This document shows positions 3,734-38,420 of a stretch of DNA of 52,480 nt, piece after piece (the stretch's first letter is position 1; each line of letters starts with the position of its first letter). The notes beneath the pieces were generated by a model. It searched no databases. It had not been told where the DNA came from and saw only the letters and a program-made list of their open reading frames with translations. Where the stretch lies: IMG/VR virus record IMGVR_UViG_2740892112_000005, one strand, 5' to 3'. The position numbers and the translations under genes were made by a program. Source of the stretch: a virus (Duplodnaviria; Heunggongvirae; Uroviricota; Caudoviricetes).

Positions 3734-3745
3734 ACTTTTCCACCA

Positions 3746-3781
3746 ATAAAAAAAGCCCGCAGCAGTGACGCCACGGGCTTC
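3746..3781 (-). terminator. hairpin plus T-run between lom and tail fibre gene
   Basis: On - strand: AAGCCCG...CGGGCTT stem followed by TTTTTTT, 20 nt upstream of the tail fibre start. Confidence 0.4.
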
Positions 3782-3884
3782 AGGACAGTGTAACTTTACG
3801 TTTCCTCAAACGCAGTTCACCCCATAAGGCGGATGAACCTGCGTATCATAACAATATTTACAGAAGATAAATCGGCGTCTGTTG

Positions 3885-4484
3885 TCAGAAACGGTATCCG
3901 ATACCAACAATAAATGCATCCGTTCGCCAGTCGCCACTGCCGGAGCCTTCATAAGCAATATCAATGGCCACGGATTCGGTCGGGTTAAACTGCACGCCAG
4001 CTCCCCACGCCAGAGAGGTATTGCTGTGGCGACCGTCATCACTTCCGGTCAGCACGTCGTGCGTTTTCCCCTTGTTGTCAGTTACGCGGAGATAATCCCC
4101 GGAGAAAGTCGACACACGGCTGTAAGCCACACCTGCCATCGCATAAGCACTGAACCATTCATTCACGCGCACAGACGGCCCCGCCATTACGCTGAACCAG
4201 CGGTTACGCACGGAATCTTCATGCCAGCGGGTATCGCTGTAATGCGTTTTTTGCTCATCTTTGGCATTGGCATAACTGAATGACGTCACCAGCCCCAGCG
4301 TGTCCGTAAACTCATAACGGTATTTCACGTTAATCCCGTTCAGATCATCGCTGCCAGGCATATCAGTATGGGTCTGAAGATACCCGGCGCTTAGTGTGGA
4401 CTGATGCTCTGCTGCGCTCGCTGGCGTACCAGCGGCAACCAGCCAGACTACTGCGGACAGAATAACAGCACATAATTTACGCAT
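3885..4484 (-). CDS. lom: Lom-like outer membrane protein (Ail/Lom family)
   Basis: 199 aa, signal peptide, beta-barrel-like alternating pattern, C-terminal ...GIGYRF; position immediately after J as in lambda. Confidence 0.85.
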   Translation of the reverse strand: MRKLCAVILSAVVWLVAAGTPASAAEHQSTLSAGYLQTHTDMPGSDDLNGINVKYRYEFTDTLGLVTSFSYANAKDEQKTHYSDTRWHEDSVRNRWFSVMAGPSVRVNEWFSAYAMAGVAYSRVSTFSGDYLRVTDNKGKTHDVLTGSDDGRHSNTSLAWGAGVQFNPTESVAIDIAYEGSGSGDWRTDAFIVGIGYRF

Positions 4485-24895: not shown

Positions 24896-25096
24896 ATGTC
24901 ATCGAAAAACCGGACCCGCAGAACCACAACCCGCAATATCCGTTTCCCCAATCACATAATTGAACAAATCAACATAGCCCTTGAGCATAAAGGGTCCGGT
25001 AACTTTTCAGCGTGGGTTATTGAAGCCTGCAGGAGAAGGCTGGCAACAGATGCAACGCATCTGCGCCCGACCAGCATGACAAATAACGAGAAATGA
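24896..25096 (+). CDS. YnfO/YlcI-like small DNA-binding protein (ribbon-helix-helix-like)
   Basis: Start at internal ATG with AAAGGAAA RBS; motif RFPNHIIEQINIALEHKGSGNFSAWVIEACRRRL. Confidence 0.5.
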   Translation: MSSKNRTRRTTTRNIRFPNHIIEQINIALEHKGSGNFSAWVIEACRRRLATDATHLRPTSMTNNEK

Positions 25097-25294
25097 ACGT
25101 TCGGTTTCTTCCACCATCGCACCGGACAGGCGACTATGAGGGGACAACGCCGCGCTCCGTTAACGCGGTAAACCCCGGTGTGTATCGTTTTTGATTATCC
25201 CCGCACACTCGCGCAGAGGAGTCTCCCTGTCGGGCTGCGGTCTCTGTTAATGCAGGAATACGGCGACAATACCGCGCATGGATAATAAGGTCGC

Positions 25295-25519
25295 TCAACA
25301 CACTGGCTGTAATGCAGCGGATACCATGCGGCATTTAGCGGCATTCATCGTACACTCCACGGTTAGCTCTTCATTCGTGGCATTCACCTGAAAGGTCCGG
25401 GAGTGTAATTGCGTACATTTACCACTGAACGAACCTTCAACAAGAACACGACCACGCTGCAAAATACGGAACGGAATTGTTCCCTGAAAAGGTTCTACGG
25501 TTACCCGTAATTTCTTCAT
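25295..25519 (-). CDS. hypothetical protein downstream of Rz
   Basis: 74-aa ORF overlapping Rz stop; no motif recognised. Confidence 0.3.
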
Positions 25520-26010
25520 GTATCCTCCGGATAATAAAAAGCCAGCTTAGTGCACTGAGTGCGGATATATTCCTGCGCCCCTTCCAGCTGCTTCTGCATT
25601 GTCATCAGCCGTTCTCTGAGGATGAAATAATCCCGTTCAGCGGTGTCTGCCAGTTGGGGGCCGGTTGCATTATCCACGCGGGCGGTGCCGGTGGCTTCAC
25701 GCACGGGACCTGGACAGGTGGCGTTGATACGCAGGCGCTTACGACCAGCGGCAACGTCAGCGCGAAGAGTTTCATTTTCAGCTCTCGCATCGGCTAATTC
25801 CCTCGAGTATTTTGCATCGAGCGCAGCAACATCACGCTGACGCATCTGCATGTCAGTAATTGCCGCGTTCGCCAGCTTCAGTTCTCTGACATTTTTGTCG
25901 CGCTGGGCTTTGTAGGTTATGGCGTTATCACGGTAATGATTCAGCCCCAGACTAAGCGCACCACAGGCCACCAGCAGGGCAATGATGACCACGCACAGTA
26001 CGCGGTTCAT
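25516..26010 (-). CDS. Rz: i-spanin Rz
   Basis: N-terminal TM then ...[17 protein letters not shown]...[26 protein letters not shown]..., very close to lambda Rz. Confidence 0.9.
25605..25790 (-). CDS. Rz1: o-spanin Rz1 lipoprotein embedded in Rz in +1 frame
   Basis: Lipobox ...LPLVVSAC, proline-rich [27 protein letters not shown] like lambda Rz1. Confidence 0.75.
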
Positions 26011-26308
26011 TTCACCACCAGCGTATCTGACCGATGAAATAACCGGAGGCCATAATCACAAACACCAGCCAGATAAGAATGAACTTCCAGGTGGATAATT
26101 TTTCAGCCATCACTCGAATCTCCCGAATCAGTTTGCTAAAATCAAACACACTTTCTCCTTTGACTTTTCCAGAGTCAGGAAACACAAAACCCCGCTTGCA
26201 GCCAACAAACGGGGTTTTTACTTTTATTCACTTAGTTTTTGTCAGTTCGCAGGATTTCGTGTTATCCGTCCGTGTGAGCAAACCGCATTTTTCAGCAAAA
26301 TATTCTGC

Positions 26309-26842
26309 TTATCTGTCAATTCCCCAGCACGCCAGCGCACTCTCCTGGTCGCGACGGGATACCTGACCGTAACAGTTGTTTGAACGAATACGGCAGTCTC
26401 TGCCACCGTCCTTAATCCACCAGCGAATCGCTTCGCAGGCACCTTTTCGATCACCTGCATTAATTCGTCTGTAAAACGTCGACGGGAAACACTTACCGGG
26501 ACCAATGTTGTACGGACAGAATGACGCGATCCCCGCTTTCTGGGGTTCGGTCAGTGGCACTCTGATGTTTTTCTCCACCCATGCCAGCGCCTTATCACGC
26601 TCAATGGCGTTAACCCGGTCGCATTTTGCCTTCGACAACTTCATGCCTGGAACAACAGGTTTACCATCCACCATGATGGCACCACGGCAGATGGTCCAGA
26701 TCCCCGCACCATCACGGTATGCCGTGGTGTGGTTACCTTCCTTTTCATCCAGAAACTGGTCGAGAATGTCAGGCGCAGGCGCACCAGCGGCAATCAGCGC
26801 CAGAACGGCAGCCGACAGGCCGTATCTGATTTTTGCGTTCAT
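26309..26842 (-). CDS. R: SAR endolysin (phage lysozyme, GH24-type)
   Basis: N-terminal weakly hydrophobic Gly/Ala-rich signal-anchor, E...D...T catalytic spacing (DEKEGNHTTAYRDGAGIWTICRG). Confidence 0.85.
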   Translation of the reverse strand: MNAKIRYGLSAAVLALIAAGAPAPDILDQFLDEKEGNHTTAYRDGAGIWTICRGAIMVDGKPVVPGMKLSKAKCDRVNAIERDKALAWVEKNIRVPLTEPQKAGIASFCPYNIGPGKCFPSTFYRRINAGDRKGACEAIRWWIKDGGRDCRIRSNNCYGQVSRRDQESALACWGIDR

Positions 26843-26905
26843 GGATATTTATCAGGATTTATCGGTTTCTGCCCACGGACAGGTTTATCTGTTCCGGTCA
26901 GTGAA

Positions 26906-27256
26906 TTAAGGTTGTGATTCCGGTGGAGTCTTCAGAGAACCAGTAATTCTTCCCGGTAGATTTCCTTTGTAGGTTATCCATACATTCTGCGCCTCTAAAA
27001 TCACGGGGCGCTTTTCCGGCAACGGTTCGTTCCCTTCACATAACCCGGCAGCAACATCCATGAAAAACTGCTTCGCCTGCTTTTTCGCCTCAGCTTCGTA
27101 AAACTCCAGCGTGGCACCTTCAGTACGGTCAAGACTAATAGCCACATCTGGCAACAACAGTGACGGATACCCACCAACTTCCAGTGCCACAGTAACAGTA
27201 ATCTTATCCGGGTAATTATTTATCCCTTTAACAACCAGTTCGTATTTTTTCTTCAT
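26906..27256 (-). CDS. hypothetical protein inserted between holin and endolysin
   Basis: 116 aa, soluble, no motif; 4-nt gap from pinholin stop. Confidence 0.45.
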   Translation of the reverse strand: MKKKYELVVKGINNYPDKITVTVALEVGGYPSLLLPDVAISLDRTEGATLEFYEAEAKKQAKQFFMDVAAGLCEGNEPLPEKRPVILEAQNVWITYKGNLPGRITGSLKTPPESQP

Positions 27257-27260
27257 CGCT

Positions 27261-27476
27261 TTACTCTCCCCGCGCCGCCTTACGCCGGTCCTCTCTGATT
27301 TTGAAATACAGGTTAGTCAGATATGTCAGCAGCCCAAACAGCAGACTCCCCAGCACGCCTATTGCCGCCCACTGAGACGGGGAAACCCTGTCCAGCAACT
27401 GCAGGAACCAGTAGCCCGTTCCCACCGCTGACGTGGTGTATGACACACCTGTTGTGATTTTTTCCATCTGGTACAT
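27261..27476 (-). CDS. S: class II pinholin (phage 21 S-like)
   Basis: 71 aa from internal start MYQMEK (dual-start motif); ...[51 protein letters not shown] nearly identical to S21. Confidence 0.85.
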
Positions 27477-27552
27477 ACCCCGTCTCCCGTTATCCGGAAG
27501 CTCACAACAATATAAAGACCACCGGCACACACCGATGGTCCCTTGCGCAGGC

Positions 27553-27798
27553 TTACATCATCATGTCGCTGTCAGGTGTGGGTTCACCGCCATCTGAAGC
27601 ACTCCCGTCACCCGCGATACCTTCCGGCTCCGGAACCGCTGGTACGCCCAGCAGCTCATCCAGAATGGCATCCACTTCTGCATCAAGACGCGCCTCAAGG
27701 TTCTGGCGGAGTTTCTGTTTCAGTGCACTCCGGACTTCTTCAGAGCGCAGGACTTCCTTCACTGCCTCAGCAGTGACCAGGGATGTGATTTCTGACAT
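27553..27798 (-). CDS. small acidic hypothetical protein upstream of lysis cassette
   Basis: 81 aa from internal Met MSEITSL... Confidence 0.35.
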
Positions 27799-27835
27799 GG
27801 GATTTTCTCGTTGAAAGGTGTTGTCAAGAAAGTGA

Positions 27836-28018
27836 CTACGGAATGAGCGGATCTTCGGGTTTGCTTCCGGCTGACTGACTGGCGCTGATTCTCTCAGCGG
27901 CCCTTTTATCAATCTGCCTGCGCCAGAAATCGCGCACTGCCCTGTACCCACCCGAAAGAAGATACATAACACAGACTGCCGTACAGAAGTACAGCATCAC
28001 CTGATGAATAAATGTCAT
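27836..28018 (-). CDS. small membrane protein (one TM, basic C-terminus)
   Basis: 60-aa ORF with hydrophobic N-terminal segment. Confidence 0.3.
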   Translation of the reverse strand: MTFIHQVMLYFCTAVCVMYLLSGGYRAVRDFWRRQIDKRAAERISASQSAGSKPEDPLIP

Positions 28019-28153
28019 AATTTCTTACCGTTATGGTTGACAATGAGAACTGTTTTCATTTAAAAAACCGATATACGAAAGCATCTTTTCTTTACATTCT
28101 CCATTGGAATTACCTCCGCCAGCGTCCATTCCTGCCGCTGGCGGCTTTTTTTA

Positions 28154-30115
28154 TCATGCCGCGATGTCCGCGTTGTTCACTTCCACCTTCACACTGTCAA
28201 TCAGCAGCGTATATGTCGCCGCCTTTGATATGCCTGTCAGTTGCAGTTTGTCCGCCGCCCCTGATGCCGGAGATTTCACCAGTGTGAACGGCGTCCCCCG
28301 TTTCTCATCCAGTACCGGCGTCACCTGAATGCTGTTGTTTCCGGCAAACTCAAAAGCCAGTGTGTGCCATCCGTTATCAAAGACCCCGAACGTATCCAGC
28401 TTCGCATTCGGCTTCTTGTGGTGCATCGCGTTCAGGTTCGTCGCATCCGTCTGCAGGAAGAAGGACATCAGCATGTCGTTGCCTTCCTCTGCCAGCGTCA
28501 CTCCCTCCGGCAGGGACGACAACTGCCAGTAAATGCCCAGGGCAAACTGATTCGGCACCAGTGAACCCGGCAACTTAAACCGTACGCTCACACGTCCCCC
28601 CTTCTTCAGTAACTCCACTCCCTGTCCGGCTGCATCATGCTCCAGAAACCAGATGTGGTTTTCCGGTTTATTCAGTTGCAGGGCCTTACCTCCCGTAGCC
28701 CCCGCATCACTGACCACCGCTTCAGCAATGTTTTTGTTAACATTGTCTCCGCTCGCCGGTTTGTGATAATAGCGCCAGCCCTGTGATGCCAGGTCTTCGC
28801 CGGACGCCAGCAGACTCATCAGGGTTCGGTTACTGACCGGGGCTTCCGGCTCTCTCTCCGTACCTTCACCGGAAGGTCCGGTGGGCTTCACCGTATCAGG
28901 CTGTTTTCCGGTAATGAATTCAGCGTTTCTCCCGGCATGCACAAGAATCGCCGTTGCCAGACGGTCGGAAATAATCCCACGACGTGCCCATGATCCAAAA
29001 TGCGTTTTACGGTCAGCCGTCGTCCAGGTTTTGGCGTCCGTTCGACCACCGGCTCCGTAATACCCAATATCCGCAACATCCGGATCTTCTGACGGCTCGT
29101 TGGTACCCACATTTCGCCCGTTTTCATCCGTCATAAACGGCACAAAGAAGATTTTTTTTGCGGATTTCGTCTTGTATGCACCATACACCGCATCGTATTG
29201 CGAAGAATAAGTCTGCTTCCAGTAGTAGGTCGTGTCGCCACAAATCCAGGGAACCGATGACGGAGAGCCCCCGAGACACTGACCTCCGAATTCCGACAGG
29301 TCAGAACGATATTTTTCCACCATGGAATCAAACAGCCCCGGCTGAGTGGCGTATGCACCCTGTTTCAAATCAAACTCGCCCTGCATCCAGACCACTGCAA
29401 GCAGAATATTTTTAGGGTTGGCCTTCAGTGCGGCCTGAGTACGGGTAAGCAGGTCCTTGTACAGTGGCTTATCAACACCCCAGCGTGCCGAGGTCTCGCT
29501 TGCGCCGGTGGATTCGCTGAAGGTACCTTCATCGCCCGCCAAAAATGCAGAACCACCACGGCAGCACGGAACCAGAAGAATACCGGCATTCGCCGGAATA
29601 AACGGCAACAATTTCTTCGCGATATGTAATCCCTGCCCCACGCATCCATACTGAGCTGCGCTGGCTTTCGGGTGTGAAAACTTACTCAAATCCTGAACAT
29701 CATGCAGGCAGTGGTCCGCAGGAATAATGTCATTGTAGTTACAGGACGCACCACCCGGCGTGACAGTGCTGCGACGCGCCAGCTGTTTAATACGCGGGTC
29801 CGGACGGTCATATGTCTCCGGCAGCGGAAGCCCTTCACCATACGCCATACCGTTTGACTGCCCGGCCAGGGCAACAACAAAGTAATACTCCGGGTTGCTG
29901 GTGGTGCTGATAACTGCGCCTTCTCCATCCGACGGCTTCACCACCACAGGTGTGGTGACATCACCTTCCGCCGCAATGGCCTGCATCAGGGTATAAGGCG
30001 TGATGGCCACCGGACTGCCAAATGGCTGCCACCCCTCCTTCAGTTTTTGTGTCAGTCGTTTCGCAAGGTCTGACGGCGATGCCGCCCTGACAACATCATA
30101 GTGTTTAAATGCCAT
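28154..30115 (-). CDS. nanS-p: prophage-encoded sialate O-acetylesterase-like protein (nanS-p / YjhS-like, as found downstream of stx in Stx phages)
   Basis: 653 aa; SGNH-like esterase N-terminal segment (…VALAGQSNGMAYGE…); position between tRNA/stx slot and lysis genes. Confidence 0.75.
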   Translation of the reverse strand: MAFKHYDVVRAASPSDLAKRLTQKLKEGWQPFGSPVAITPYTLMQAIAAEGDVTTPVVVKPSDGEGAVISTTSNPEYYFVVALAGQSNGMAYGEGLPLPETYDRPDPRIKQLARRSTVTPGGASCNYNDIIPADHCLHDVQDLSKFSHPKASAAQYGCVGQGLHIAKKLLPFIPANAGILLVPCCRGGSAFLAGDEGTFSESTGASETSARWGVDKPLYKDLLTRTQAALKANPKNILLAVVWMQGEFDLKQGAYATQPGLFDSMVEKYRSDLSEFGGQCLGGSPSSVPWICGDTTYYWKQTYSSQYDAVYGAYKTKSAKKIFFVPFMTDENGRNVGTNEPSEDPDVADIGYYGAGGRTDAKTWTTADRKTHFGSWARRGIISDRLATAILVHAGRNAEFITGKQPDTVKPTGPSGEGTEREPEAPVSNRTLMSLLASGEDLASQGWRYYHKPASGDNVNKNIAEAVVSDAGATGGKALQLNKPENHIWFLEHDAAGQGVELLKKGGRVSVRFKLPGSLVPNQFALGIYWQLSSLPEGVTLAEEGNDMLMSFFLQTDATNLNAMHHKKPNAKLDTFGVFDNGWHTLAFEFAGNNSIQVTPVLDEKRGTPFTLVKSPASGAADKLQLTGISKAATYTLLIDSVKVEVNNADIAA

Positions 30116-30297
30116 GAATCCTCCCGGCCGGGATAATATTGTGAGTAAAATAAGGAGCGGGCTGAAGTCCGGAAGTTACAGGACAATGGCAGAAGAGAGA
30201 CGACAGCCCGCAATTCGAAAAAGACCGCGCAGTTGCGCAGCCTTATGAATTCTGGTTAAAATCCATTCGATTATAAAAATGTATATCTCATGCTGTT

Positions 30298-30322
30298 GCC
30301 CGAACCCACTCGGGCTTTTTTT
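30298..30322 (+). terminator. intrinsic terminator on + strand
   Basis: GCCCGAACCCACTCGGGC hairpin followed by TTTTTTT. Confidence 0.4.
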
Positions 30323-30590
30323 GCCCACAAGAAAGCCCCTCCGGAGAGGGGCTAAAGCCGCGTATCTGTATCATCATGCACATGGTGCCGGGTGCCTCCC
30401 GGTGAGTTCAGCCCGGTGCCACTAAACCCGCGTCATTCTCGTTTTGATAATCAGAGATTATACCGTCACCAGTCGCCCCTCCGCTCAGGGGGATTCACCA
30501 TGCGAAATTTTTTTAACAAATGCCCAGTCTGACAGGCAACTGTCAACTTACTGAATTGTGAGCAACATAGCATTTAACGGGGAACCTGTT
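30315..30590 (-). repeat. structured non-coding module, copy B (paralogue of 30815-31075), ending in an intrinsic terminator
   Basis: Shares with copy A the blocks CATGGTGAATCCCCCTG.GCGGAGGGGC, ACTCACCGGGAGGCACCCGGCACCATG and the terminator AGCCCCTCTCCGGAGGGGCT + U-run (- strand). Confidence 0.5.
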
Positions 30591-30599
30591 TTCTGCAGT

Positions 30600-30627
30600 A
30601 AAAAGGCCCACCGGAGCGGATGGGCCT
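30600..30627 (-). terminator. intrinsic terminator on - strand
   Basis: GGCCCA...TGGGCC hairpin followed by TTTTT on - strand. Confidence 0.4.
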
Positions 30628-30814
30628 GGAAGGATAGCGGTCATGTGATGCCGGTTTCCCGGTAACTCAGCACCGGTATCTGAGTCAACGTTTTCTCTAC
30701 TGGGTCATTTCCGATACGCCCTGCCTGCTGACAGGCTTTCATCACATCTGAAAATATAGCACCCTGACTGATACTGTAGTACCTAAGGTTCCAGAAACTG
30801 TGATGTATCCGGCA

Positions 30815-31075
30815 CAGAAAAGCCCCTCCGGAGAGGGGCTGGAGAGTGGCACTATGTGCCATTGCATGGTGCCGGGTGCCTCCCGGTGAGTTCAGTATCA
30901 GCACCTGAACCCGCACAGAAAGGATAAGGGTCGGTGACAAAACACCAGTTGCTGATTGCCCCTCCGCACAGGGGGATTCACCATGCCAGTTTCTTTTAAC
31001 AAACTCCCCGCAAACCAGACAACAGTCAACCGCCTGAATTGTGAGGTATTTAAAAATTTCAACGGGTAACTGATA
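30815..31075 (-). repeat. structured non-coding module, copy A, ending in an intrinsic terminator
   Basis: See copy B; terminator hairpin at 30821-30840 with U-run on - strand. Confidence 0.5.
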
Positions 31076-31080
31076 CCCTG

Positions 31081-31233
31081 CTAATCGCCTGATGCTTTCT
31101 TTTTCAGCAACGGGAAAGCAACAACCACCACACCCGCCACCAGCACACCGTCAGCCAGCACTGACATTATCCGGCTGCTGAAGTCCACCATCACCACCAG
31201 AAACAGCAGGAGCGCAACCACAGCCAGACGCAT
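31081..31233 (-). CDS. 50-aa hydrophobic peptide (two predicted TM segments), 8 nt downstream of TerB-like gene
   Basis: MRLAVVALLLFLVVMVDFSSRIMSVLADGVLVAGVVVVAFPLLKKKASGD; weak RBS, below the 60-aa ORF-track threshold. Confidence 0.3.
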   Translation of the reverse strand: MRLAVVALLLFLVVMVDFSSRIMSVLADGVLVAGVVVVAFPLLKKKASGD

Positions 31234-31241
31234 TTTTACCG

Positions 31242-31673
31242 TCACAGATGATTCTCCAGACGAAGGCCCAGAACACCGGCAATCTCTTCCAGCACCTTGC
31301 GCTCTTCCGGCTCTATTTCGCCGTCTGCTTCGGCAATGGCCACCGCCACATCCAGCACGTCTTCCGCTTCACGCGTATCGTGTTTCACATCCTCGATCTC
31401 ACGTAACGCCGCACGACGACCAATTTTAAAGTTCGTATCCAGCTGACCGATAATGGTTGCGCTAATCGCATTAATTTCTGACGTAAACGCGGACAAGGTG
31501 GGCTGGTTACGTAATACCTGTTCGATCTTCGCTTTCTCGGAAGCCTCACATTCACCATCGGCATAAGCCACCAGGTATGCAGCGTTAATCACTGCCTGTG
31601 CCAGATCGCGTTTTTCAAACTTTTTAATTTCCGCAGACGCTCTGCGGGTTTTCTTTTTGAAGATTCCAAGCAT
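31242..31673 (-). CDS. TerB-like (tellurite-resistance TerB domain) protein
   Basis: 143 aa from internal Met with AAGGAA RBS; paired motifs ...AVINAAYLVAYADGECEASE... and ...VLDVAVAIAEADGEIEPEE... typical of TerB-like repeats. Confidence 0.55.
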   Translation of the reverse strand: MLGIFKKKTRRASAEIKKFEKRDLAQAVINAAYLVAYADGECEASEKAKIEQVLRNQPTLSAFTSEINAISATIIGQLDTNFKIGRRAALREIEDVKHDTREAEDVLDVAVAIAEADGEIEPEERKVLEEIAGVLGLRLENHL

Positions 31674-31843
31674 TGTGACGTTCCTTTGGGTGGGTGAGCC
31701 AACGCCCGGGAGCGATCTGCCCACAGAGAAAGTCACACTGACCACTCCGTAAGCTCACCCCCGAAAGGCTCTGTGGTTGATATGCGCCGGGCGTGGCGCG
31801 GATACAAAAAAGGCCCGCAAAAGCGAGCCGGGAAAAATAAGTC

Positions 31844-31920
31844 TGGCGCGTTGTACTGGATTCGAACCAGTGACCGATTGCTTAGAAGGCAATTGCTCTG
31901 TCCGGCTGAGCTAACAACGC
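31844..31920 (-). tRNA. argO: tRNA-Arg (anticodon UCU)
   Basis: Cloverleaf folded by hand: GCGTTGT acceptor, anticodon loop CTTCTAA, T-loop TTCGAAT, 3' CCA encoded. Confidence 0.85.
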
Positions 31921-31934
31921 AGAATGCCGATAAA

Positions 31935-32011
31935 TGGACCGCCATCGAGGACTCGAACCCCGCGCAACCAGCTTCGAAGGCTGGCGCTCTATCCCGATGA
32001 GCTAATGGCGG
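31935..32011 (-). tRNA. argN: tRNA-Arg (anticodon UCG)
   Basis: Cloverleaf folded by hand: anticodon stem CCAGC/GCTGG, loop CTTCGAA, T-loop TTCGAGT, CCA encoded. Confidence 0.8.
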
Positions 32012-32020
32012 TATGTGATA

Positions 32021-32096
32021 TGGTGGCCCTTGCTGGATTTGAACCAGCGACCTGGCGATTATGAGTCGCTCGCTCTCACCACTGAGCTAAAGGGCC
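32021..32096 (-). tRNA. ileZ: tRNA-Ile2-like (anticodon CAU, ileX/ileZ-type)
   Basis: GGCCCTT acceptor, anticodon loop CTCATAA, very similar to E. coli ileX; cannot exclude elongator Met identity from sequence alone. Confidence 0.8.
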
Positions 32097-32136
32097 GGGC
32101 GCAGGATAATAACGGTACGTAACTAATCCTGCAATA

Positions 32137-33195
32137 TCATCCGTTCTGACTGGCTAAATCCTGAACTTCCCTGACCGTCTGTTCAAAACGTTCAGTCTCC
32201 AGCTCAACGCCTGTAGCACGACGCCCCAGCGCCATCGCGGCTTTGACTGTCGAACCCGACCCCATGAAGAAATCTGCAACCAGGTCACCCGGACGACTGC
32301 TCGCACTGATTATCTGCTGCAGCATTTCTGCCGGTTTTTCGCACGGATGTTTCCCGGGATAGTACTGCACCGGTTTATGCGTCCACACATCCGTGTACGG
32401 CACCTGCGCCGTCACGCCAAAATACCGCCGCAGATGCTTATATTCACTCTGCAGTTCCGCATACTGCCGGTTCAGTGAAGTATACGTCTCCAGCAGCTGG
32501 TGGTGGGGCTTTTCCAGTTCACCCCGCTGATGCTTCTCTTCTGCCACCCGGGCAAACAGCGCCTGTAATTTCAGATAATCACTTTCGTTCGGCAGCTGCC
32601 ACTGACTGGCACTGAACCAGTGCGACACCATGTTTTTCTTTCCTGTGGCATCCACTATCTGTTTTGCCGTTATCCCCAGGGCAGCGCGCGCATCACGAAA
32701 GTAAGCAATCAGCGGGGCCATCACATGCTGTTTCAGTGCCCTGCCCTTCGCCTCATACCCGGCATCTTTCGGACGATACGGCCCCTGATAATGTTCCGCG
32801 AACAGAATGCGCTCTGTGGCGGGGAAATACGCCCGCAGGCTTTCCTTGTTGCACCCGTTCCAGCGTCCGGACGGCTTTGCCCAGATAATATGGTTCAGCA
32901 CACTGAAGCGTTCACGCATCATGATTTCGATATCAGATGCCAGGCGATGACCACAGAACAGGTAAAGACTTCCGGCAGGTTTCAGCACCCGCCAGAACTG
33001 CGCCAGACACTGGTCCAGCCACTTCAGGTAATCATCGTCGCCCTTCCACTGGTTATCCCAGCCCTCAGGCTTCACTTTAAAGTACGGCGGGTCCGTGACT
33101 ATCAGGTCAACAGAATTTTCGGGTAACGACCGGATAAATTCCAGGCAGTCGGCGTTGATTAACTCACAACTGGATATTTTTACAGTATTAAGCAT
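32137..33195 (-). CDS. N6-adenine DNA methyltransferase (DPPY motif)
   Basis: 352 aa with DLIVTDPPYF catalytic motif and C-terminal SAM-binding region (…DLVADFFMGSGST…). Confidence 0.8.
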   Translation of the reverse strand: MLNTVKISSCELINADCLEFIRSLPENSVDLIVTDPPYFKVKPEGWDNQWKGDDDYLKWLDQCLAQFWRVLKPAGSLYLFCGHRLASDIEIMMRERFSVLNHIIWAKPSGRWNGCNKESLRAYFPATERILFAEHYQGPYRPKDAGYEAKGRALKQHVMAPLIAYFRDARAALGITAKQIVDATGKKNMVSHWFSASQWQLPNESDYLKLQALFARVAEEKHQRGELEKPHHQLLETYTSLNRQYAELQSEYKHLRRYFGVTAQVPYTDVWTHKPVQYYPGKHPCEKPAEMLQQIISASSRPGDLVADFFMGSGSTVKAAMALGRRATGVELETERFEQTVREVQDLASQNG

Positions 33196-33345
33196 GGATC
33201 ATTAAACCTGTCTCTGATAGGCTCATTCTGCTTTTGCGCAAAGCAGTGGGCCTGAGGTTTGCTTGTGATCCAGACGCATGAGCAGATGGCTGGTGAGTGC
33301 CCCTAACACCCACCAGCCGCCCATTTACCACAAATAAAAAAGCCT

Positions 33346-33543
33346 TCAGGACTGAAGGCGTCTGTAACAACCAAACTGATAGTCTGCCAGACCCGCCATA
33401 ACCAGCTGGGTCAGTATTAACTGGCAGCGTTCGCGTGAAAGGTAAGTATTCTGCGCTATCTCCCCGACTGTCGCCGGTTCGGTAACGCTTAATTCATTAA
33501 ACACCACTCTGGCGGTTTCTGTCATATCCTGCTGTTTTAGCAT
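33346..33543 (-). CDS. small hypothetical protein just downstream of tR-prime
   Basis: 65 aa from internal Met (MLKQQDMTETARVVFNELSV...). Confidence 0.35.
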   Translation of the reverse strand: MLKQQDMTETARVVFNELSVTEPATVGEIAQNTYLSRERCQLILTQLVMAGLADYQFGCYRRLQS

Positions 33544-33661
33544 GTCTTTTTCCCTTTTCCGGTTAACGTGACACACCAATAACTCTTGTCGAAAAAGCCA
33601 GCAAGCTGAAAGACAGGTATTCACCGCCACCAGCGCGTTTACTGTACTGACGCGATTTCAG

Positions 33662-33688
33662 TCATAAAAAACCCGCCAGGCGGCGGGG
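33662..33688 (-). terminator. tR-prime-like intrinsic terminator of the short late leader RNA
   Basis: CCCGCC...GGCGGG hairpin followed by TTTTTT on - strand. Confidence 0.6.
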
Positions 33689-33736
33689 TGTAAAAAATCT
33701 TCTAACGTCAGGCATAAAACGCCCATCGTTAGAGCA

Positions 33737-33764
33737 AATTTACCACAGATTCGGGAAAAATCAA
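33737..33764 (-). promoter_or_regulatory. late promoter pR-prime (TTGATT-16-TAAATT) with pause-inducing AACGATGGG element just downstream
   Basis: Immediately downstream of Q stop; -10 TAAATT and the +2 AACGAT element as in lambda pR-prime. Confidence 0.6.
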
Positions 33765-33769
33765 CAACA

Positions 33770-34591
33770 CTATCGCGTTACCCTCTTTAACTGCCGCTCC
33801 GCCCATGCCTCTTCAATGTCAAACCGAACCACCAACGTATCGTAAAAGCGTTTCACTGATTTTTTCCACGTATCAAGCGTGATAGCACTCGTCACTTTGC
33901 ATATGGCATTAAATGCCTCCGTTGATGGCAGCCTTTCACAGCCACGACCACCACAACGCTGGCAATCTCTGATAACAGGCATACCACGTTTTACCGACTC
34001 TTCACGATGAATGGCGACACCACGCCCACGGCAATCCTTACAGGCGGTGGAAACCTCACCCTTTCCGCCACACTCCGGACAGGCAACTTTTACCACCTCC
34101 CTGACTTTTTTCCATTCTTCCCAGTAAGACGGATACACGCCTTTTGTGCACTTTGCCCACACTGGTGGCTTACCATCCGGATACTGGATCTTGTTTGTAA
34201 AAACCTCGCTTTCAATAAATTTTTTTCCGTGACAGCAGGGGCACTGTTTTTTGCTCGCCGCGCTACGGGCATAATCTTCAAACGCATACGAAGCCATAAT
34301 GCGCATCACTACCGGTTTTATTTCTGCCGGAAGTTTTCTCAACGCCGCCACACGATCGCACCGACTGAGTGCATAATCTGCCAGTAATTCTGTTGCCCGC
34401 GCCCTGTCATTCATACTGATGCCCATTTTCCCCAGGAACGCAGAAAACCCCATCTCAGCCCGATTCTGTGTCATGCCCTGCGCGGCCATCACATCAGTGA
34501 TACTCAGCGCATCTTTTGACGTTGAGGCCGATGCATCGGTCAGGCCAGGGGATTTTGGGGAGTAGTATTTCGGTAAATCTTCCAGTTTCAT
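33770..34591 (-). CDS. Q: late antiterminator Q (phage 82/QuuQ-like, zinc-finger)
   Basis: 273-aa ORF with several CxxC pairs; sits between RusA and pR-prime. Confidence 0.7.
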   Translation of the reverse strand: MKLEDLPKYYSPKSPGLTDASASTSKDALSITDVMAAQGMTQNRAEMGFSAFLGKMGISMNDRARATELLADYALSRCDRVAALRKLPAEIKPVVMRIMASYAFEDYARSAASKKQCPCCHGKKFIESEVFTNKIQYPDGKPPVWAKCTKGVYPSYWEEWKKVREVVKVACPECGGKGEVSTACKDCRGRGVAIHREESVKRGMPVIRDCQRCGGRGCERLPSTEAFNAICKVTSAITLDTWKKSVKRFYDTLVVRFDIEEAWAERQLKRVTR

Positions 34592-34962
34592 TTTTTGACC
34601 TGCTCTTCATGCATTATGGGGTAAATCTTCACCCCCATACGTCCACCAGATACTGGCTGACCACGAACGATATTGATTTCATCAAACTGCTCATCGTCCA
34701 TTAACACTCCCGCATGCGTCAGCGCATCCAGCGGTGCTTTCAGGATATTGTCCAGGTCGCGACGACGCTTATCCGGTGGCTCTGCAATCACCTTTATCGC
34801 CAGCCTTCCGGACAGGCTTAATTTCAGCCGCTGCTGGCGAACAATAAGCGCCACAGCCCGGCGATAACGCTTTCCCTCCTCCGAGATAAAATATGTGCTG
34901 CCACGGCGTCGCCAGTAAGTGTTCACCGTCGGCGGGTAAGGTAAAACCAAATCTATGAGCAT
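34588..34962 (-). CDS. rusA: Holliday junction resolvase RusA
   Basis: 124 aa; ...YPPTVNTYWRRRGS...DLDNILKAPLDALT... typical RusA motifs. Confidence 0.85.
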   Translation of the reverse strand: MLIDLVLPYPPTVNTYWRRRGSTYFISEEGKRYRRAVALIVRQQRLKLSLSGRLAIKVIAEPPDKRRRDLDNILKAPLDALTHAGVLMDDEQFDEINIVRGQPVSGGRMGVKIYPIMHEEQVKK

Positions 34963-34974
34963 CAGTCACCTCTT

Positions 34975-36021
34975 TTACCCAAGCACGCCAGTTGCAAAGG
35001 CGTGATCAAGAAAACGAAAAATTAAATCAACCTGAGAACCATGCTTTTCTTCGAACGCCAGAGGATCCGCATGAAGCTCGTTGTGATGCTCCCGACACAG
35101 CGGTAGCGTGAAAATATCGTGAGATTTTGTCCCCATTCCGCCCTGACCATGACCAATCAGGTGATGGGGATCGTCGGCTGGCTTACCACAACACGCACAC
35201 GGCTGTGTCTTCACCCAGCGTGTGTATTTCTCGTTAACCCAGCGGCGACGTTTAGGTCGTTTCATGAAAGATTCCGGAGACTCAGGATCAACGGCAATGC
35301 TGACCACCGTCTCTTCCTGTGGCGGGTTTTGCTGGTGGGCGTGAGGCAGCGGCGCAAGATTTTTTGTGCGCTGCTTCAGTATGCTGGTGGCGGTCTGCTC
35401 TCCCGGTACGATGTCGCTTTCACGGTACATTGAGCGGATTTTTTCCGCACGCAACCCCAGCGAACGACGTAATACCGCTTCCGGTAGCGCGTCCGCCACC
35501 TGATTGCGGACCGCCCACCAGGATAATTCAGCCAGCGATAATTCCCGTTCCTGCGAGCCATTCATTGCATGGCGTATGACGTCAATCATCCATGCAGACA
35601 GGTTTTGGTGAGCAAGTTGCCCGAGTGATTCGGAGGTCTGGTCGCGCAGCTGGTTGTCGCAGTGCCAGCACAACACCATTGCGCCGGTACCATAACGGTG
35701 AATGACGGTTTCACTGTGGTGATAATCGCCGTGTGGCCACTGGCAGGATTTAACATGGCGCAGTAACCAATCAGACAATGCGCCAGCGCCACCAGCAGCA
35801 CGAATCACTCGTTCGTCGCTGAAAAATGGCAGTAATGATTTATCCTCCGCCAGCGGCTGGCGAACGGCAGGAACGACCCCGGACGGCAGATTACGCATGC
35901 TTTTCGGTTCCGGCTCCACCAGTACCCGGGTATTGTGGAATACCGGCATGGATTCACGGCCCGGCTTAACGATCACCAGCCCGAGTTCCGGTACCAGAAC
36001 AGGTCGAAGTAATACCCGCAC
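34975..36021 (-). CDS. YdfU/NinG-like DUF968 protein with HNH-like C-terminus
   Basis: 348 aa; C-terminal CACCGK...HHLIGHGQGG...CREHHNELH. Confidence 0.65.
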   Translation of the reverse strand: MRVLLRPVLVPELGLVIVKPGRESMPVFHNTRVLVEPEPKSMRNLPSGVVPAVRQPLAEDKSLLPFFSDERVIRAAGGAGALSDWLLRHVKSCQWPHGDYHHSETVIHRYGTGAMVLCWHCDNQLRDQTSESLGQLAHQNLSAWMIDVIRHAMNGSQERELSLAELSWWAVRNQVADALPEAVLRRSLGLRAEKIRSMYRESDIVPGEQTATSILKQRTKNLAPLPHAHQQNPPQEETVVSIAVDPESPESFMKRPKRRRWVNEKYTRWVKTQPCACCGKPADDPHHLIGHGQGGMGTKSHDIFTLPLCREHHNELHADPLAFEEKHGSQVDLIFRFLDHAFATGVLG

Positions 36022-36022
36022 G

Positions 36023-36307
36023 TTACCTCCAGATGCGTTGCTGGAATGTGCGGGACGGACGCGGTGGGCGTTCGGAATAAGGGAGTCTGACGTAGATTAT
36101 CCAGTGACGATAATCGAGGGTGAGGGCTTTCCTAAACTCATATCCACGTCTGCGGTAGTTATGAATCAGCCATTCGGCCTGTTCTTCAGTACAGGGATCG
36201 TGCTGATACCAGTCATATTTGAATGCGTGAGAACGCCACCCGTGCCTGCTGGCAAAGGCAGAATCAGAATTGCGAAATTTGAAATTATGCGCCATTGTCA
36301 TCTCCAA
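36023..36307 (-). CDS. hypothetical nin-region protein
   Basis: 94-aa ORF adjacent to YdfU-like gene. Confidence 0.4.
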   Translation of the reverse strand: MEMTMAHNFKFRNSDSAFASRHGWRSHAFKYDWYQHDPCTEEQAEWLIHNYRRRGYEFRKALTLDYRHWIIYVRLPYSERPPRPSRTFQQRIWR

Positions 36308-36354
36308 TGGCGCTGCAGGTTGCCAGTTGTTCAGGCTGGCTCACGTATTATAAC

Positions 36355-36528
36355 TTATTCCCGAACTACCTTGAAACCGAGTCTTTCCAAGTATTCAATG
36401 AATGCCTCAACAGATAACACTACATGATCATCAGGAATTAACGCTGTGTAGGTAATACCCCCATTCTCAACGCGCACAGCATAGAGGCCATCTTCACTAA
36501 AAATTTCACGTAATTCTTCGATTTTCAT
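36355..36528 (-). CDS. small hypothetical protein (AT-rich)
   Basis: 57 aa from internal Met MKIEELREIF with GGAAGGA RBS; candidate TTGAAG-18-TAGAAT promoter upstream. Confidence 0.35.
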   Translation of the reverse strand: MKIEELREIFSEDGLYAVRVENGGITYTALIPDDHVVLSVEAFIEYLERLGFKVVRE

Positions 36529-36660
36529 CAACAGAATCCTTCCAGATAAATAGCACTCCCCCTGTTCGGGGTCCATCCCTCTTCTCCCTGCGCGCTACTT
36601 AAGTATTTTTGATTCTATTCTGGCACCGTCCAAAACTTCAAACACGTTGAAAATAAAAAC

Positions 36661-36683
36661 AAAAAACCCGCCGAAGCGGGTAT
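36661..36683 (-). terminator. intrinsic terminator ending the AT-rich two-gene cassette; copy 1 of a duplicated hairpin
   Basis: On - strand: CCCGCTTCGGCGGG hairpin + TTTTTT directly after the peptidase stop; same 21-nt sequence recurs at 38497-38517. Confidence 0.5.
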
Positions 36684-36685
36684 AC

Positions 36686-37792
36686 TCAAACAATCTGGAA
36701 AATATTTCTTGGATTTGTAATAGGTCTGTTGATGGAGAACAACTCACGAATTAAATCTTGGCTCAAGCCAGTTTTCATAAGAATTCTTAGCCAGGTTGCA
36801 TCATCCAGCATTTCAATCGCCTCGGCCAGCATGCCGGGTTCTTCAGGGCGCAAAAGTTCATCACCAGGTTCAACTCTCGTATACCCTCTGGAATTAAGAT
36901 GCATATAGCCAGTTCTTGCCTGTTCCTGGGTCAATAAGCCTAATGCGCTGGCTCGATAAATACACATTTTAAGGCTGATTTTCCATCTAAGTTTAAATTC
37001 AACCAGAGCATTCCAGTCGAATTGCTTACCTCGTATTCGTGGAAATTCTTTAATGAAAGATAACCTGGGAACTAATAAGGCGCTCGAAAAGTGATCGGCT
37101 TGTGATTCCGTAAGTTTATCACCTGTCGTTATGCCCTCATGCATTACTAAATGCCCTAATTCATGACCTAAATCAGAGCGAAATCTACATATGCTTTTTT
37201 TAACATTGTTCCTGATGATAACAGGCCTGTTATTGTGAACAGTAAAAGCATCAACACGATCATCGACTCCCGTAACATGCGCAACGATTACCCCTAAACT
37301 CTCCGCCAATTTAACCATTGATGATATAGGGCCAAGACCTAAATTCCAGGCACGGCGACAATCTTCTGCCACTCGCTCAATATCATTCGGAGTAAGTAAT
37401 TCAGCCCCTGGGTGCTCCGGTATGTTAACGTCAGGAAATTCGATTTCACCTTCAACAGCAGAAATTATAATATTAAGAATCTCAGCCCTGGCCAATACAC
37501 TATTAGTCAGCGTTTGAGTCCTGGACTTCTTACTCCGAAAATGGCAGACATCACTTTCCAGAGCGTATTTTCGTTCAGTAAAAAGAAAACTGGACTTAAT
37601 CATAAGCGCTGAAGATATTAACTCAAGACATTGCTCCGATGGCCTGCACCCCTTCTCCAGTTTGCTAACGAATTGCTTTGTCTTGCCAATTTTTTCGGCT
37701 AACTCTTCACAAGAAAGCCCAACAGCCATTCTCGCTAGTTTGAGCTTATCACCCCGATACTCAGTGAAGTTATTCACCTGATGTTCCATCAC
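36686..37792 (-). CDS. fused XRE-family HTH / ImmA-IrrE (COG2856, M78-like) zinc metallopeptidase
   Basis: N-terminal HTH (…LSCEELAEKIGKTKQFVSKLEKG…), HEXXH motif (HELGHLVMH) in the middle; AT-rich. Confidence 0.7.
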   Translation of the reverse strand: MMEHQVNNFTEYRGDKLKLARMAVGLSCEELAEKIGKTKQFVSKLEKGCRPSEQCLELISSALMIKSSFLFTERKYALESDVCHFRSKKSRTQTLTNSVLARAEILNIIISAVEGEIEFPDVNIPEHPGAELLTPNDIERVAEDCRRAWNLGLGPISSMVKLAESLGVIVAHVTGVDDRVDAFTVHNNRPVIIRNNVKKSICRFRSDLGHELGHLVMHEGITTGDKLTESQADHFSSALLVPRLSFIKEFPRIRGKQFDWNALVEFKLRWKISLKMCIYRASALGLLTQEQARTGYMHLNSRGYTRVEPGDELLRPEEPGMLAEAIEMLDDATWLRILMKTGLSQDLIRELFSINRPITNPRNIFQIV

Positions 37793-38420
37793 TGCTCACA
37801 TCCAAATCTTTATCCTTCGTACGCCGACGAAGAGGCACCTTATTAATCTCCGCTTCGTCAGGGAGTGTGTTATAATCAAGAGGCATAAGCGGCATCGATG
37901 CTGTAGATTGATGAGAAACTATACTAATCTGAGCACCATAAGTATTAAATCCAACAAGAGCTACCTCCCAACGAGGCAGTGTGGACTCTAATTCACCATC
38001 GCCCTCTTCGGATAAAAAAGGCTCAGCTATGACTCGCCATGTAATATCTTGCTCAGCCTCAACATCACCAAACAATGAGAGCTGCTCATACTCTACTTTA
38101 TTTCGACGCAGACGATGTTTCTTTTTGGGGTTATTAATGCAATCTTTGGTAAATTGTAGCGGAACTTTATTTAAAGCAACTACATAGTCCAACCCCTTGG
38201 AAATCATCTCAAGGCCAGGAATTGCATCTTCATTTTGAATAAGATGATTTCTGACCCAATCATAAGCCCTTACACCTTCAGACCAGTTGCTGTCTAATGC
38301 GTGCTTATGATAGTACAGCTGCTCAAGTACGTTAGCGATCTCCGCCAACAAGTGGCGAACATAGTTTTCAGCAAGATAAGGTTGAAATTCCCAACAAGGA
38401 GCTAACTGATTTTCATTCAT
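37770..38420 (-). CDS. hypothetical 216-aa protein, upstream partner of the HTH-peptidase gene (candidate effector/toxin)
   Basis: Stop overlaps partner start by 23 nt; no recognisable motif; AT-rich; candidate TTGACA promoter upstream at about 38479-38484. Confidence 0.45.
   Translation of the reverse strand: MNENQLAPCWEFQPYLAENYVRHLLAEIANVLEQLYYHKHALDSNWSEGVRAYDWVRNHLIQNEDAIPGLEMISKGLDYVVALNKVPLQFTKDCINNPKKKHRLRRNKVEYEQLSLFGDVEAEQDITWRVIAEPFLSEEGDGELESTLPRWEVALVGFNTYGAQISIVSHQSTASMPLMPLDYNTLPDEAEINKVPLRRRTKDKDLDVSSDGTSGE

Follow-up and report, generated by a model that had tools for sequence, protein, structure and literature searches.

Two genes lie on the minus strand between positions 31081 and 31673 of the window, by which we mean the whole 52,480-nucleotide stretch of Caudoviricetes DNA that was analysed. 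The upstream gene, tciA (31242..31673, stop included), encodes a 143-aa TerB-domain protein, and tciB (31081..31245, stop included), which overlaps its 3′ end, encodes a 54-aa protein of the DUF3927 family. Both open reading frames are real genes, and neither is new: they are catalogued in Pfam, PHROGs and RefSeq, the last as WP_001304604.1 (‘tellurite resistance TerB family protein’) and WP_000216690.1 (‘DUF3927 family protein’) of Escherichia coli ABU 83972 (NC_017631.1). The ABU 83972 locus is 99.96% identical over 12.8 kb (window 37800..25000), with identical gene calls, down to the GTG at which the small gene begins, and no difference of substance; to judge by this match, the window is the ABU 83972 prophage or a near-clone of it. 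We are nearly certain that the two-gene cargo is the tciA–tciB module, so called after tciA/tciB of phage P1, and that a lambdoid E. coli prophage carries it in its late operon as an exchangeable cassette, precisely where Stx phages have stxAB. A preliminary description of this DNA had recognized the two reading frames but overlooked that the pair was already named and annotated. The P1 names tciA, tciB and tciC reportedly go back to the annotation of Lobocka et al. 2004. In a set of 5426 complete E. coli genomes, this tciA–tciB allele group turned up in at least 790, and its relatives are spread over widely differing phage lineages, which places the module among the most widespread phage accessory modules of putative role; the literature searched on tciA/tciB, DUF3927 and TerB in phages yielded annotation mentions and no functional study.

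The TerB assignment of TciA, proposed earlier from the letters alone, was borne out by profile searches, which matched Pfam PF05099 (TerB) far above its cut-off (60.2 bits against 24.4, E = 2.9e-16; TciA residues 26–138 on profile positions 2–109 of 118) and PHROG 632 from end to end (residues 1–143 on 1–143 of 143, E = 8.8e-69). A TciA profile run against the PDB found Klebsiella TerB (2jxu, E = 7.4e-13) and 2ou3 (E = 7.4e-5). AF2 modelled TciA as seven helices with a pLDDT of 88.7, and the best Foldseek matches to this model were 2h5n (probability 1.00, TM 0.55–0.63) and 2ou3, with weak E-values of 0.013 at best. The two ADGE-containing repeats that had also been described are present (A38-D39-G40-E41 and A116-D117-G118-E119, one in each A-D-G-E...E repeat) and reflect a true internal duplication, as aligning one half of TciA with the other scored 67 against a shuffle mean of 23.5 (s.d. 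4.1), a score reached by none of 500 shuffles. Across 23 homologues, D117, G118, E46 and E124 never vary, and conservation of D39 and G40 reaches at least 90%. The charge of the protein is bipolar, with basic residues 1–24 (net about +6) preceding an acidic helical body (residues 25–143, net −12). Over 45 alleles, dN/dS was 0.058, indicating purifying selection.

TciB matched Pfam PF13064 (DUF3927; 71.7 bits, cut-off 25, E = 5e-20) and PHROG 1470, ‘TciB-like’ (E = 1.5e-22). DUF3927 proteins are nearly always free-standing and of about 50–65 aa, and TciB identity runs at 28–55% from lambdoid prophages through to jumbo and N4-like phages; a tblastn search of the phage collection with the 54-aa protein, a short query subject to low-complexity filtering, returned JLK-2012 as its sole match. 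Hydropathy marks two hydrophobic segments (residues 7–20 and 33–47), with basic tails at both ends and a conserved centre, D21-F-x-S-R25...D32-G33, between them, in keeping with the earlier suggestion that the TerB gene is partnered by a gene for a small membrane protein. The charge-free hydrophobic stretches span just 14–15 residues, so a true two-pass TciB would need to place D21 and D32 within the bilayer.

The start of tciB required correction. The preliminary description had a 50-aa peptide beginning 8 nt downstream of the TerB gene, with a weak ribosome-binding site and uncertain translation. Instead, the 54-aa protein starts at GTG 31245, in a 4-nt overlap with the tciA stop (GTGA), and its ribosome-binding site is not weak, because GGAG lies 8 nt 5′ of the GTG as a good Shine–Dalgarno sequence. 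The alternative ATG at 31233 is missing from most alleles because codon 5 is Leu in most E. coli alleles, and the N-terminal M-x-x-K-x-R is kept in the homologues of P1, P7, Fostie, jumbo phages and N4-like phages. For tciB, dN/dS was 0.28 in frame, whereas the two alternative frames gave 1.05 and 2.18. A conserved family, purifying selection and a conserved coupled start all favour a real gene.

It could be supposed that these are functionless hitch-hiking reading frames, or that the small one was mis-called, given that no phenotype is known and that the small frame is short and hydrophobic. This supposition is effectively refuted by dN/dS and by the linkage survey described below. Purifying selection acts on tciA and tciB alike, and solely in the frame that is annotated; lambdoid, jumbo and N4-like phages all conserve the pair; and of 80 related loci, no more than about 7 have a truncated tciA or lack a tciB call.

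As earlier proposed, the pair sits in the late region, within an operon whose features all lie on the minus strand. At its head is a Q-type antiterminator gene (33770..34591), annotated in RefSeq as ‘antitermination protein’ by way of the 99.96% identity. A candidate pR′-like site, TTGATT-N16-TAAATT (33764..33737), was read from the sequence, assigned by its position and with only 8/12 agreement, and the terminator scan placed terminator-like hairpins after it at 33736..33720, 33687..33672 and 33359..33342. Three tRNA genes, ileZ(CAT)-argN(TCG)-argO(TCT) (31844..32096; ARAGORN, Rfam tRNA and RefSeq), lie directly upstream of the pair in the same transcription direction, as had been described; the CAT-anticodon tRNA is called Met by ARAGORN and Ile (that is, ileZ) by RefSeq. 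Directly after argO comes a terminator-like GC hairpin with a T-run (31812..31829; terminator scan), which is common to Stx phages. On the other side, 65 nt beyond the tciB stop, lies an STnc100 array (30323..31015; Rfam RF02076, repeats and terminators) of two full copies (31015..30810 and 30532..30323, scoring 139.7 and 165.5 bits against a gathering score of 47) and a degenerate copy (30771..30598, 30.1 bits), each ended by a terminator hairpin. A nanS-p-type sialate O-acetylesterase gene follows (28154..30115; DUF1737 + SASA + DUF6645; Pfam and RefSeq), and after it come holin, endolysin and spanin genes, with the class II holin gene of the RefSeq annotation (27476..27261) located 3.6 kb downstream of the pair.

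That the pair occupies the stx position proved to be exact. By blastn break points against two Stx2 phages (L003 and L004), which share flanks with the window on both sides, the exchangeable cassette of leader, tciA and tciB spans 31045..31794 (minus strand) and stands in for the 1328-bp stx2AB segment of those phages. Homology runs through the methylase and tRNA genes to window position 31795, 49 nt past argO, and restarts at 31044, which corresponds to 46 nt past the stx2B stop, and again at 30561. The break points 31795 and 31044 equate to positions 3005 and 4334 of the Stx2-phage locus, with stx2A-stx2B between them at 3048–4288, and Stx-phage positions 4334–4568 align with the STnc100 region. 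Stx2 phages such as Stx2_112808 and Stx2a_1447 share with the window the upstream methylase, ileZ-argN-argO and terminator hairpin, the downstream STnc100 and nanS-p, and presumably the same Q-dependent late expression. They differ in the number of STnc100 copies (one, against 2.5 in the window) and in the cargo itself, which is unrelated: an AB5 toxin in Stx2 phages, compared with a cytoplasmic TerB protein and a membrane miniprotein here. tciA–tciB occupies the slot to which Stx phages owe their medical importance.

Allele comparison shows that the cassette also brings the tciA leader, about 135 nt long (31674..31811, minus strand), which ends in an AAGGAA Shine–Dalgarno sequence 7 nt before the ATG and hardly varies among 30 distinct alleles, including those that diverge farther upstream. 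As a structured RNA the leader gained weak support, with no Rfam family, z = −1.74 and one compensatory pair. In 14 related loci the post-argO hairpin is duplicated, flanking an extra two-ORF insert, and it recurs as the joint between adjacent cassettes.

We surveyed the TerB–DUF3927 linkage in 17 phage TerB loci, hand-picked from a spread listing rather than drawn at random, applying a home-built HMM to the downstream reading frames. A DUF3927 gene directly followed the TerB gene in 12 of these 17 loci, and the junction between the two genes measured −8 to +4 nt (overlap or gap) in 12 of the 17, diverse as they were. Two loci, both in Pseudomonas phages, encoded at the tciB position another kind of small membrane protein, likewise coupled, and the remaining three had a TerB gene and no small partner, from which it follows that TciA can act alone. 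Looking in reverse from five divergent DUF3927 genes, we found TerB upstream in all four cases with a complete upstream gene; at three further DUF3927 places on cut contigs, a fragment of an upstream reading frame abuts or overlaps the DUF3927 start. Carriers include the strictly virulent jumbo Machinavirus, Schitoviridae FSL SP-058 and Pantoea LIET2. The P1 homologues lie within the C1-repressed ban operon; the pair is upstream of lysis genes in Fostie, an Actinobacillus phage and Klebsiella phage 1 LV-2017, and in Fostie and LV-2017 it is also downstream of an annotated Q gene; and in two metagenomic phages it comes just after cro. TerB and DUF3927 are thus a tight, translationally coupled module of both temperate and strictly virulent phages, and wherever regulation could be read the module was within a lytic transcription unit.

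This placement bears on the possibility, raised in the preliminary description, that the pair is expressed from lysogen promoters. At least three terminator-like hairpins intervene between the pR′-like site and tciA, and a crude minus-strand scan from the post-argO hairpin to tciA, which could miss a promoter active in the lysogen, found no sigma-70 consensus promoter. Together with C1 repression of the P1 homologues and the presence of the pair in virulent phages, these results speak against lysogen expression. The same observations make it quite unlikely, in our judgement, that the module serves lysogenic conversion, with prophage tciAB protecting its host against tellurite, pore-forming colicins or superinfection. 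The ‘tci’ name implies such a role by analogy with the plasmid ter operon, and lysogenic conversion would suit a position that is the classic moron and virulence-cargo slot, a cassette with its own conserved leader and a module so common in E. coli genomes. However, TerB without TerC, TerD and TerE is not considered enough for tellurite resistance (PMC8421299), and no terC, terD-family or other ter gene is annotated in the 12.8 kb around tciA (in the 99.96% identical RefSeq locus).

The module was also compared with named systems. Both families, their order and the overlapping stop and start are common to the window and to P1 and P7, where TciA is 41% (P1) and 51% (P7) identical and TciB 44% (P1) and 43% (P7). 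The P1 and window pairs both adjoin phage tRNA genes downstream of a DNA methyltransferase gene, and both are named by homology only. P1 differs in its control, which runs through the C1-regulated ban operon and not through a late operon dependent on Q, and in possessing a third gene, tciC (35 aa, single-TM; also in P7), which the window lacks: the best tblastn match of P1 TciC to the window had E = 6.4 and lay elsewhere in it. TciA shares its domain family, helical fold and acidic D-G motifs with the TerB of terZABCDEF (Klebsiella, PDB 2jxu), but the sequences are distant, and a DUF3927 miniprotein takes the place of the partners TerC, TerD, TerE and TerZ. A TerB domain combined with a membrane anchor, as TciA–TciB may be, is also found in DjlA (TM + TerB + J domain) and DUF533/YebE; in the window pair, any anchor would be a polypeptide of its own, and there is no J domain. 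TciA scored below threshold against both (DjlA 28.6 bits, cut-off 162; DUF533 24.8 bits, cut-off 29.6).

The neighbouring lysis genes raise a further explanation, that TciB and TciA, made just before the holin, tune its triggering in an antiholin-like or pro-holin manner. The pair is directly 5′ of holin/endolysin genes in several temperate phages, the window pair belongs to the same late operon as the class II holin gene, and the size and hydropathy of TciB are of the holin class. Against this, Pfam and PHROGs returned for TciB, at E ≤ 1, only DUF3927 and PHROG 1470, neither of them a holin family; the P1, jumbo, N4-like and cro-proximal loci have no annotated lysis gene in flanks of 1.5–3 kb; and CRISPRi knock-down of P1 tciA, tciB and tciC left plating normal, with no defect (PMC10695390). 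We consider a role in lysis timing to be improbable. The effects on envelope stress, superinfection or lysis timing that the preliminary description suggested are speculative.

TerB domains are also parts of validated defence systems (10.1101/2025.09.30.679545), which suggests that TciA, held by TciB, might be a counter-defence decoy that imitates or titrates away the signal on which host TerB immune sensors rely. Its targets would be SngA of Shango, BnzA of Bunzi and DinB of Dionysus, and these systems would be blinded during infection; we regard such a decoy as unlikely. A decoy would be at home in virulent and jumbo phages, for which lysogenic conversion brings no gain, and would be expressed from lytic units, as in the P1 and cro-proximal examples. 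On the other side, the closest solved relative of TciA is a classical Ter-operon TerB, and a phage anti-TerB factor was not found in the literature searched. Nor did TciA convincingly match a defence model: membership of a TerB defence system such as Shango or Bunzi was rejected, the best PADLOC-DB match of TciA being PDC-S48 (14.9 bits, E = 0.0025) and TciB matching nothing, in a release that predates Dionysus. No helicase/ATPase or pore-forming effector gene is found among the annotated neighbours of tciA–tciB.

We propose that tciA–tciB acts in lytic development, likeliest as a membrane-tethered TerB complex. The scheme as a whole, in which this complex guards the inner membrane during lytic growth, we consider plausible, if still somewhat short of probable. 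Translation of the two genes would be coupled and would draw on lytic-cycle transcripts, which here would arise by Q-antiterminated read-through from pR′ across several terminators. TciB would insert as a helical hairpin into the inner membrane, leaving its two short basic tails in the cytoplasm, and TciA, a soluble and acidic two-repeat TerB protein with a strongly basic N-terminal segment, would dock on TciB and on the anionic membrane surface; the membrane logic of this proposal derives from the hydropathy of TciB and the bipolar charge of TciA. So tethered, the complex might sense or buffer a signal close to the membrane, for instance a cation or the energised state of the membrane, and might thereby keep the inner membrane of the infected cell functional until the phage’s own holin fires, despite pore-forming insults from colicins, superinfecting phage or host membrane-targeting abortive-infection effectors. 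TerB domains have been described as amphitropic and proposed for membrane surveillance (10.1101/2025.09.30.679545).

More tentatively, TciA and TciB may be a dedicated two-part, lytic-only phage device that manipulates a membrane-proximal signal, either blinding host TerB-type sensors or guarding membrane energisation against abortive-infection pores, a possibility that we consider rather less likely than not. If true, such a device would explain the spread of the coupled pair over lambdoid, P1-like, N4-like and jumbo phages, and would be the first function for any phage TerB. Tight linkage, conserved coupling, presence in virulent phages and placement solely in lytic units, wherever regulation was readable, are constraints for assigning a function, and they speak for regarding the label ‘tellurite resistance’ as probably misleading.

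Several apparent DUF3927 fusions (P0124, P0184, P0250, P0292 and P0293) were considered as evidence of interaction and set aside as apparent frameshift or chimeric products, containing for instance TerB read out of frame, a histidine-phosphatase fragment or an ABC fragment; no genuine TerB–DUF3927 fusion was present among the candidates inspected. When the natural frameshift fusion P0124 was modelled with AF2 as a stand-in for the complex, the pLDDT was 41.7.

Two minus-strand ORFs fill window positions 31673..31081. The first, tciA, runs from an ATG at 31673 to a stop at 31244..31242 (-), has AAGGAA 7 nt 5' of the ATG and encodes 143 aa; the second, tciB, is best read as a 54-aa ORF from a GTG at 31245 to a stop at 31083..31081 (-). 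Upstream of tciA, in the same direction, are tRNA genes CAT (ileZ), TCG and TCT (32096..31844, -) and, further up, genes for an N6/N4 DNA methylase (33195..32137, -) and a Q-type antiterminator (34591..33770, -). Downstream of tciB lies a nanS-p-type esterase gene (30115..28154, -), with STnc100 sRNA copies and lysis genes. From 37800 to 25000, the window is 99.96% identical, without gaps, to E. coli ABU 83972 (NC_017631.1), in which the RefSeq annotation gives exactly these genes, the small one in its 54-aa form. The pair is tciA/tciB of phages P1 and P7, the P7 annotation already cites O157 prophage homologues, and the feature is already known and annotated; P1 also has tciC, which the window locus lacks.

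The preliminary description, mostly accurate overall, was right on identity: TciA is solidly a TerB-domain protein. It matched Pfam PF05099 at 60.2 bits (gathering score 24.4) and PHROG 632 'tellurite resistance' from end to end (E=8.8e-69), and a profile built from eight phage homologues matched the solved Klebsiella TerB 2jxu (E=7.4e-13). Its AlphaFold2 model (pLDDT 88.7, seven helices) found its best PDB matches in 2h5n and 2ou3, two structures of the TerB superfamily. The two ADGE repeats already noticed are real and reflect internal duplication, as residues 5-53 align to 81-131 with a score of 67; shuffles averaged 23.5 (sd 4.1), and none of 500 scored as high. The protein is bipolar, with an N-terminal segment of +6 and a helical body of -12. 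The locus falls outside the classical Ter system, since TerC and TerD genes are missing, and PADLOC defence models gave no convincing match for it.

TciB matched Pfam DUF3927 (71.7 bits, cut-off 25) and PHROG 1470 'TciB-like'. It was for this small gene that the preliminary description needed correction: a 50-aa peptide had been read from ATG 31233, 8 nt after the TerB stop and with a weak RBS. In homologues from P1, P7, Fostie, jumbo Machinavirus, an N4-like Salmonella phage and others, the start lies four codons further 5' and the N-terminus is a conserved M-x-x-K-x-R; most alleles among 80 related viral contigs read V-T-V-K-L-R, and the internal Met codon is absent from them. The conserved start, a GTG, overlaps the stop codon of tciA (GTGA) and is preceded at 8 nt by GGAG. 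The 54-aa protein has a basic N-tail, hydrophobic stretches at 7-20 and 33-47 and a basic C-tail, and between the two stretches is an invariant centre, D21-F-x-S-R25...D32-G33. In the annotated frame, dN/dS for tciB was 0.28, compared with 1.05 and 2.18 in the other two (19 alleles, Nei-Gojobori), and for tciA it was 0.058 (45 alleles, pooled Nei-Gojobori), which indicates that both are real, selected genes.

TerB proteins of ~143 aa related to TciA occur in 130 phage records. Among 17 phage TerB loci, hand-picked from a spread listing, 12 have a DUF3927 ORF starting -8 to +4 nt from the TerB stop, and such recurrent overlaps or short gaps are a signature of translational coupling. Carriers among these 12 include strictly virulent phages (Erwinia and Salmonella jumbo Machinavirus, Schitoviridae FSL SP-058 and Pantoea LIET2) as well as the phage-plasmids P1 and P7 and temperate phages of Klebsiella, Actinobacillus and Escherichia. 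In two further loci, from Pseudomonas phages AF (L009 2432-2653) and Zuri (L098 1943-2146), the place of DUF3927 is taken by a different coupled small membrane protein of 67-73 aa. This protein has a single hydrophobic helix at its N-terminus and, towards the C-terminus, the conserved motif C-x-x-Y-G-x-Q-T-E-R-E-T-x-Y-A-x-F-V-G-C-M-V, and may serve phage TerB as an alternative partner in the membrane; no small partner was found downstream in the other 3 of the 17. The Zuri annotation labels look shifted, with 'dCTP deaminase' on the TerB gene and 'tellurite resistance protein' on the small ORF. Seen from the DUF3927 side, an exhaustive profile search yielded only 122 cluster representatives, nearly all free-standing and of 50-65 aa. 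For five divergent ones the contigs were inspected: a TerB gene was immediately upstream in 4/4 places with a complete upstream gene, and in the other three, where the contig is cut, the DUF3927 start adjoins or is overlapped by a fragment of an upstream ORF. Apparent DUF3927 fusions to other sequence were frameshift or chimeric artefacts. That the pair is junk, the last-ranked alternative, is effectively refuted by purifying dN/dS and by this conserved pairing, and we give it next to no credence.

Regulation was readable in several carriers. The P1 homologues sit in the ban operon, under C1 operators; in Fostie, an Actinobacillus phage and Klebsiella phage 1 LV-2017 the pair is upstream of lysis genes, in Fostie and LV-2017 also downstream of an annotated Q gene; and in two metagenomic phages it follows cro. 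In the window, a pR'-like TTGATT-N16-TAAATT (33764..33737, -), scoring only 8/12, lies just after the Q stop and is followed by terminator-like hairpins at 33736..33720 and 33687..33672 (-), then a 65-aa ORF and a terminator at 33359..33342 (-). Such an arrangement yields a short leader RNA of the 6S/StxS type in lambdoid and Stx phages. Between the pR'-like site and tciA there are at least three terminator-like hairpins (33687..33672, 33359..33342 and 31829..31812), and a minus-strand scan ahead of tciA detected no consensus sigma-70 site. Wherever regulation can be read, the unit therefore appears to be a lytic-cycle one, in keeping with the proposed expression with late genes; the other proposal, lysogen promoters, is the less likely half, given both this and the virulent carriers. 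The same two observations argue against a purely lysogenic-conversion role, and conversion to tellurite, colicin or phage resistance, ranked second among the alternatives, seems improbable to us; phage genome authors have also doubted tellurite resistance from a lone phage TerB (PMC8421299). Modulation of the lysis clock, ranked third, we consider more doubtful still.

TerB domains elsewhere are fused to membrane anchors and described as amphitropic, and a role in membrane surveillance has been proposed for them in the defence systems Shango, Bunzi and Dionysus (10.1101/2025.09.30.679545). We tentatively favour a model, in which we infer interaction, topology, ligand and phenotype alike, whereby TciA would have TciB as its partner in the membrane, the complex so tethered would sense or buffer a membrane-proximal signal in the infected cell, and membrane function would thereby be protected up to programmed lysis. 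The first-ranked alternative, an anti-defence decoy against TerB-type host sensors, is unlikely, though the least so of the alternatives. Our literature search found no functional study of the pair; CRISPRi knock-down of P1 tciA, tciB and tciC caused no defect in plating (PMC10695390), and a 2026 preprint lists TerB among conserved neighbours of prophage PasA/PasC sRNAs (PMC13192938). The module is very common in phages and strongly conserved, and the constraints gathered here make its function directly testable.

The proposed stx position was borne out. Stx2_112808 (L003) and Stx2a_1447 (L004) share the window's methylase-tRNA flank at ~97% identity, including the hairpin at 31829..31812 (-); homology with both ends at 31795, 49 nt past argO, and returns at 31044, 46 nt after the stx2B stop (and also at 30561, because STnc100 is duplicated in the window). 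A 750-bp leader-tciA-tciB cassette thus takes the exact place of the 1328-bp stx2AB segment. In JLK-2012 (L002) the cassette follows other tRNA genes (Asn, Thr and Gly annotated; Asn and Gly found by ARAGORN), and in PPyecE_EH1910 it follows a toxin-antitoxin-like pair, with no tRNAs there. tRNA genes adjoin tciA-tciB in unrelated phage types: P1, P7, jumbo Machinavirus (L008, L091), JLK-2012 and 60/80 IMG/VR loci. Ile(CAT)-Arg-Arg usually ends ~170 nt upstream in lambdoid prophages, and Trp and Cys ~145 nt upstream in the jumbo phages; P1 and P7 have Asn and Thr upstream and Ile(CAT) directly downstream and, in P1 as in the window, a DNA methyltransferase gene precedes the block. Behind this adjacency could be either a linked module or a 'moron' zone common to these phages.

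The 135-nt tciA leader (31674-31811, -) is almost invariant in 30 distinct alleles, even with unrelated DNA further upstream. By RNAalifold, a long-range helix would enclose an inner hairpin, but this fold is thinly supported, with z=-1.74, a single compensatory pair and no Rfam family; the leader could be a cis-regulatory or processing element. In 14 of the 80 related prophage contigs (IMG/VR loci L030 (2236-3000), L039, L041, L043, L054, L058-L061, L063-L066 and L068), an extra ~600-nt segment lies between the last tRNA and the leader, carrying two small ORFs, of ~76 aa (VKKLMVTIGPFETEV...) and ~69 aa (MFVSEVLMEDKDNKGW...). On both sides of it is the same terminator-like hairpin, then TTTTTTGTATC; this hairpin may be a joint where cargo cassettes swap.

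The spacer between tciB and nanS-p holds an array of STnc100 (Rfam RF02076), with full copies at 31015..30810 (-, 139.7 bits) and 30532..30323 (-, 165.5 bits) and a degenerate third at 30771..30598 (-, 30.1 bits, below gathering score), each closed by a terminator hairpin, whereas the Stx2 phages compared have one copy at the matching point, directly after stx2B. Beside the array, on the strand opposite the late operon, is an AsxR-like anti-sRNA (30268-30320, +). Its AsxR match, at 63.0 bits, just equals the gathering score, and its AgvB match (43.4 bits) falls short of that family's gathering score, 56; a terminator-like hairpin with T-run occupies 30298-30315 (+).
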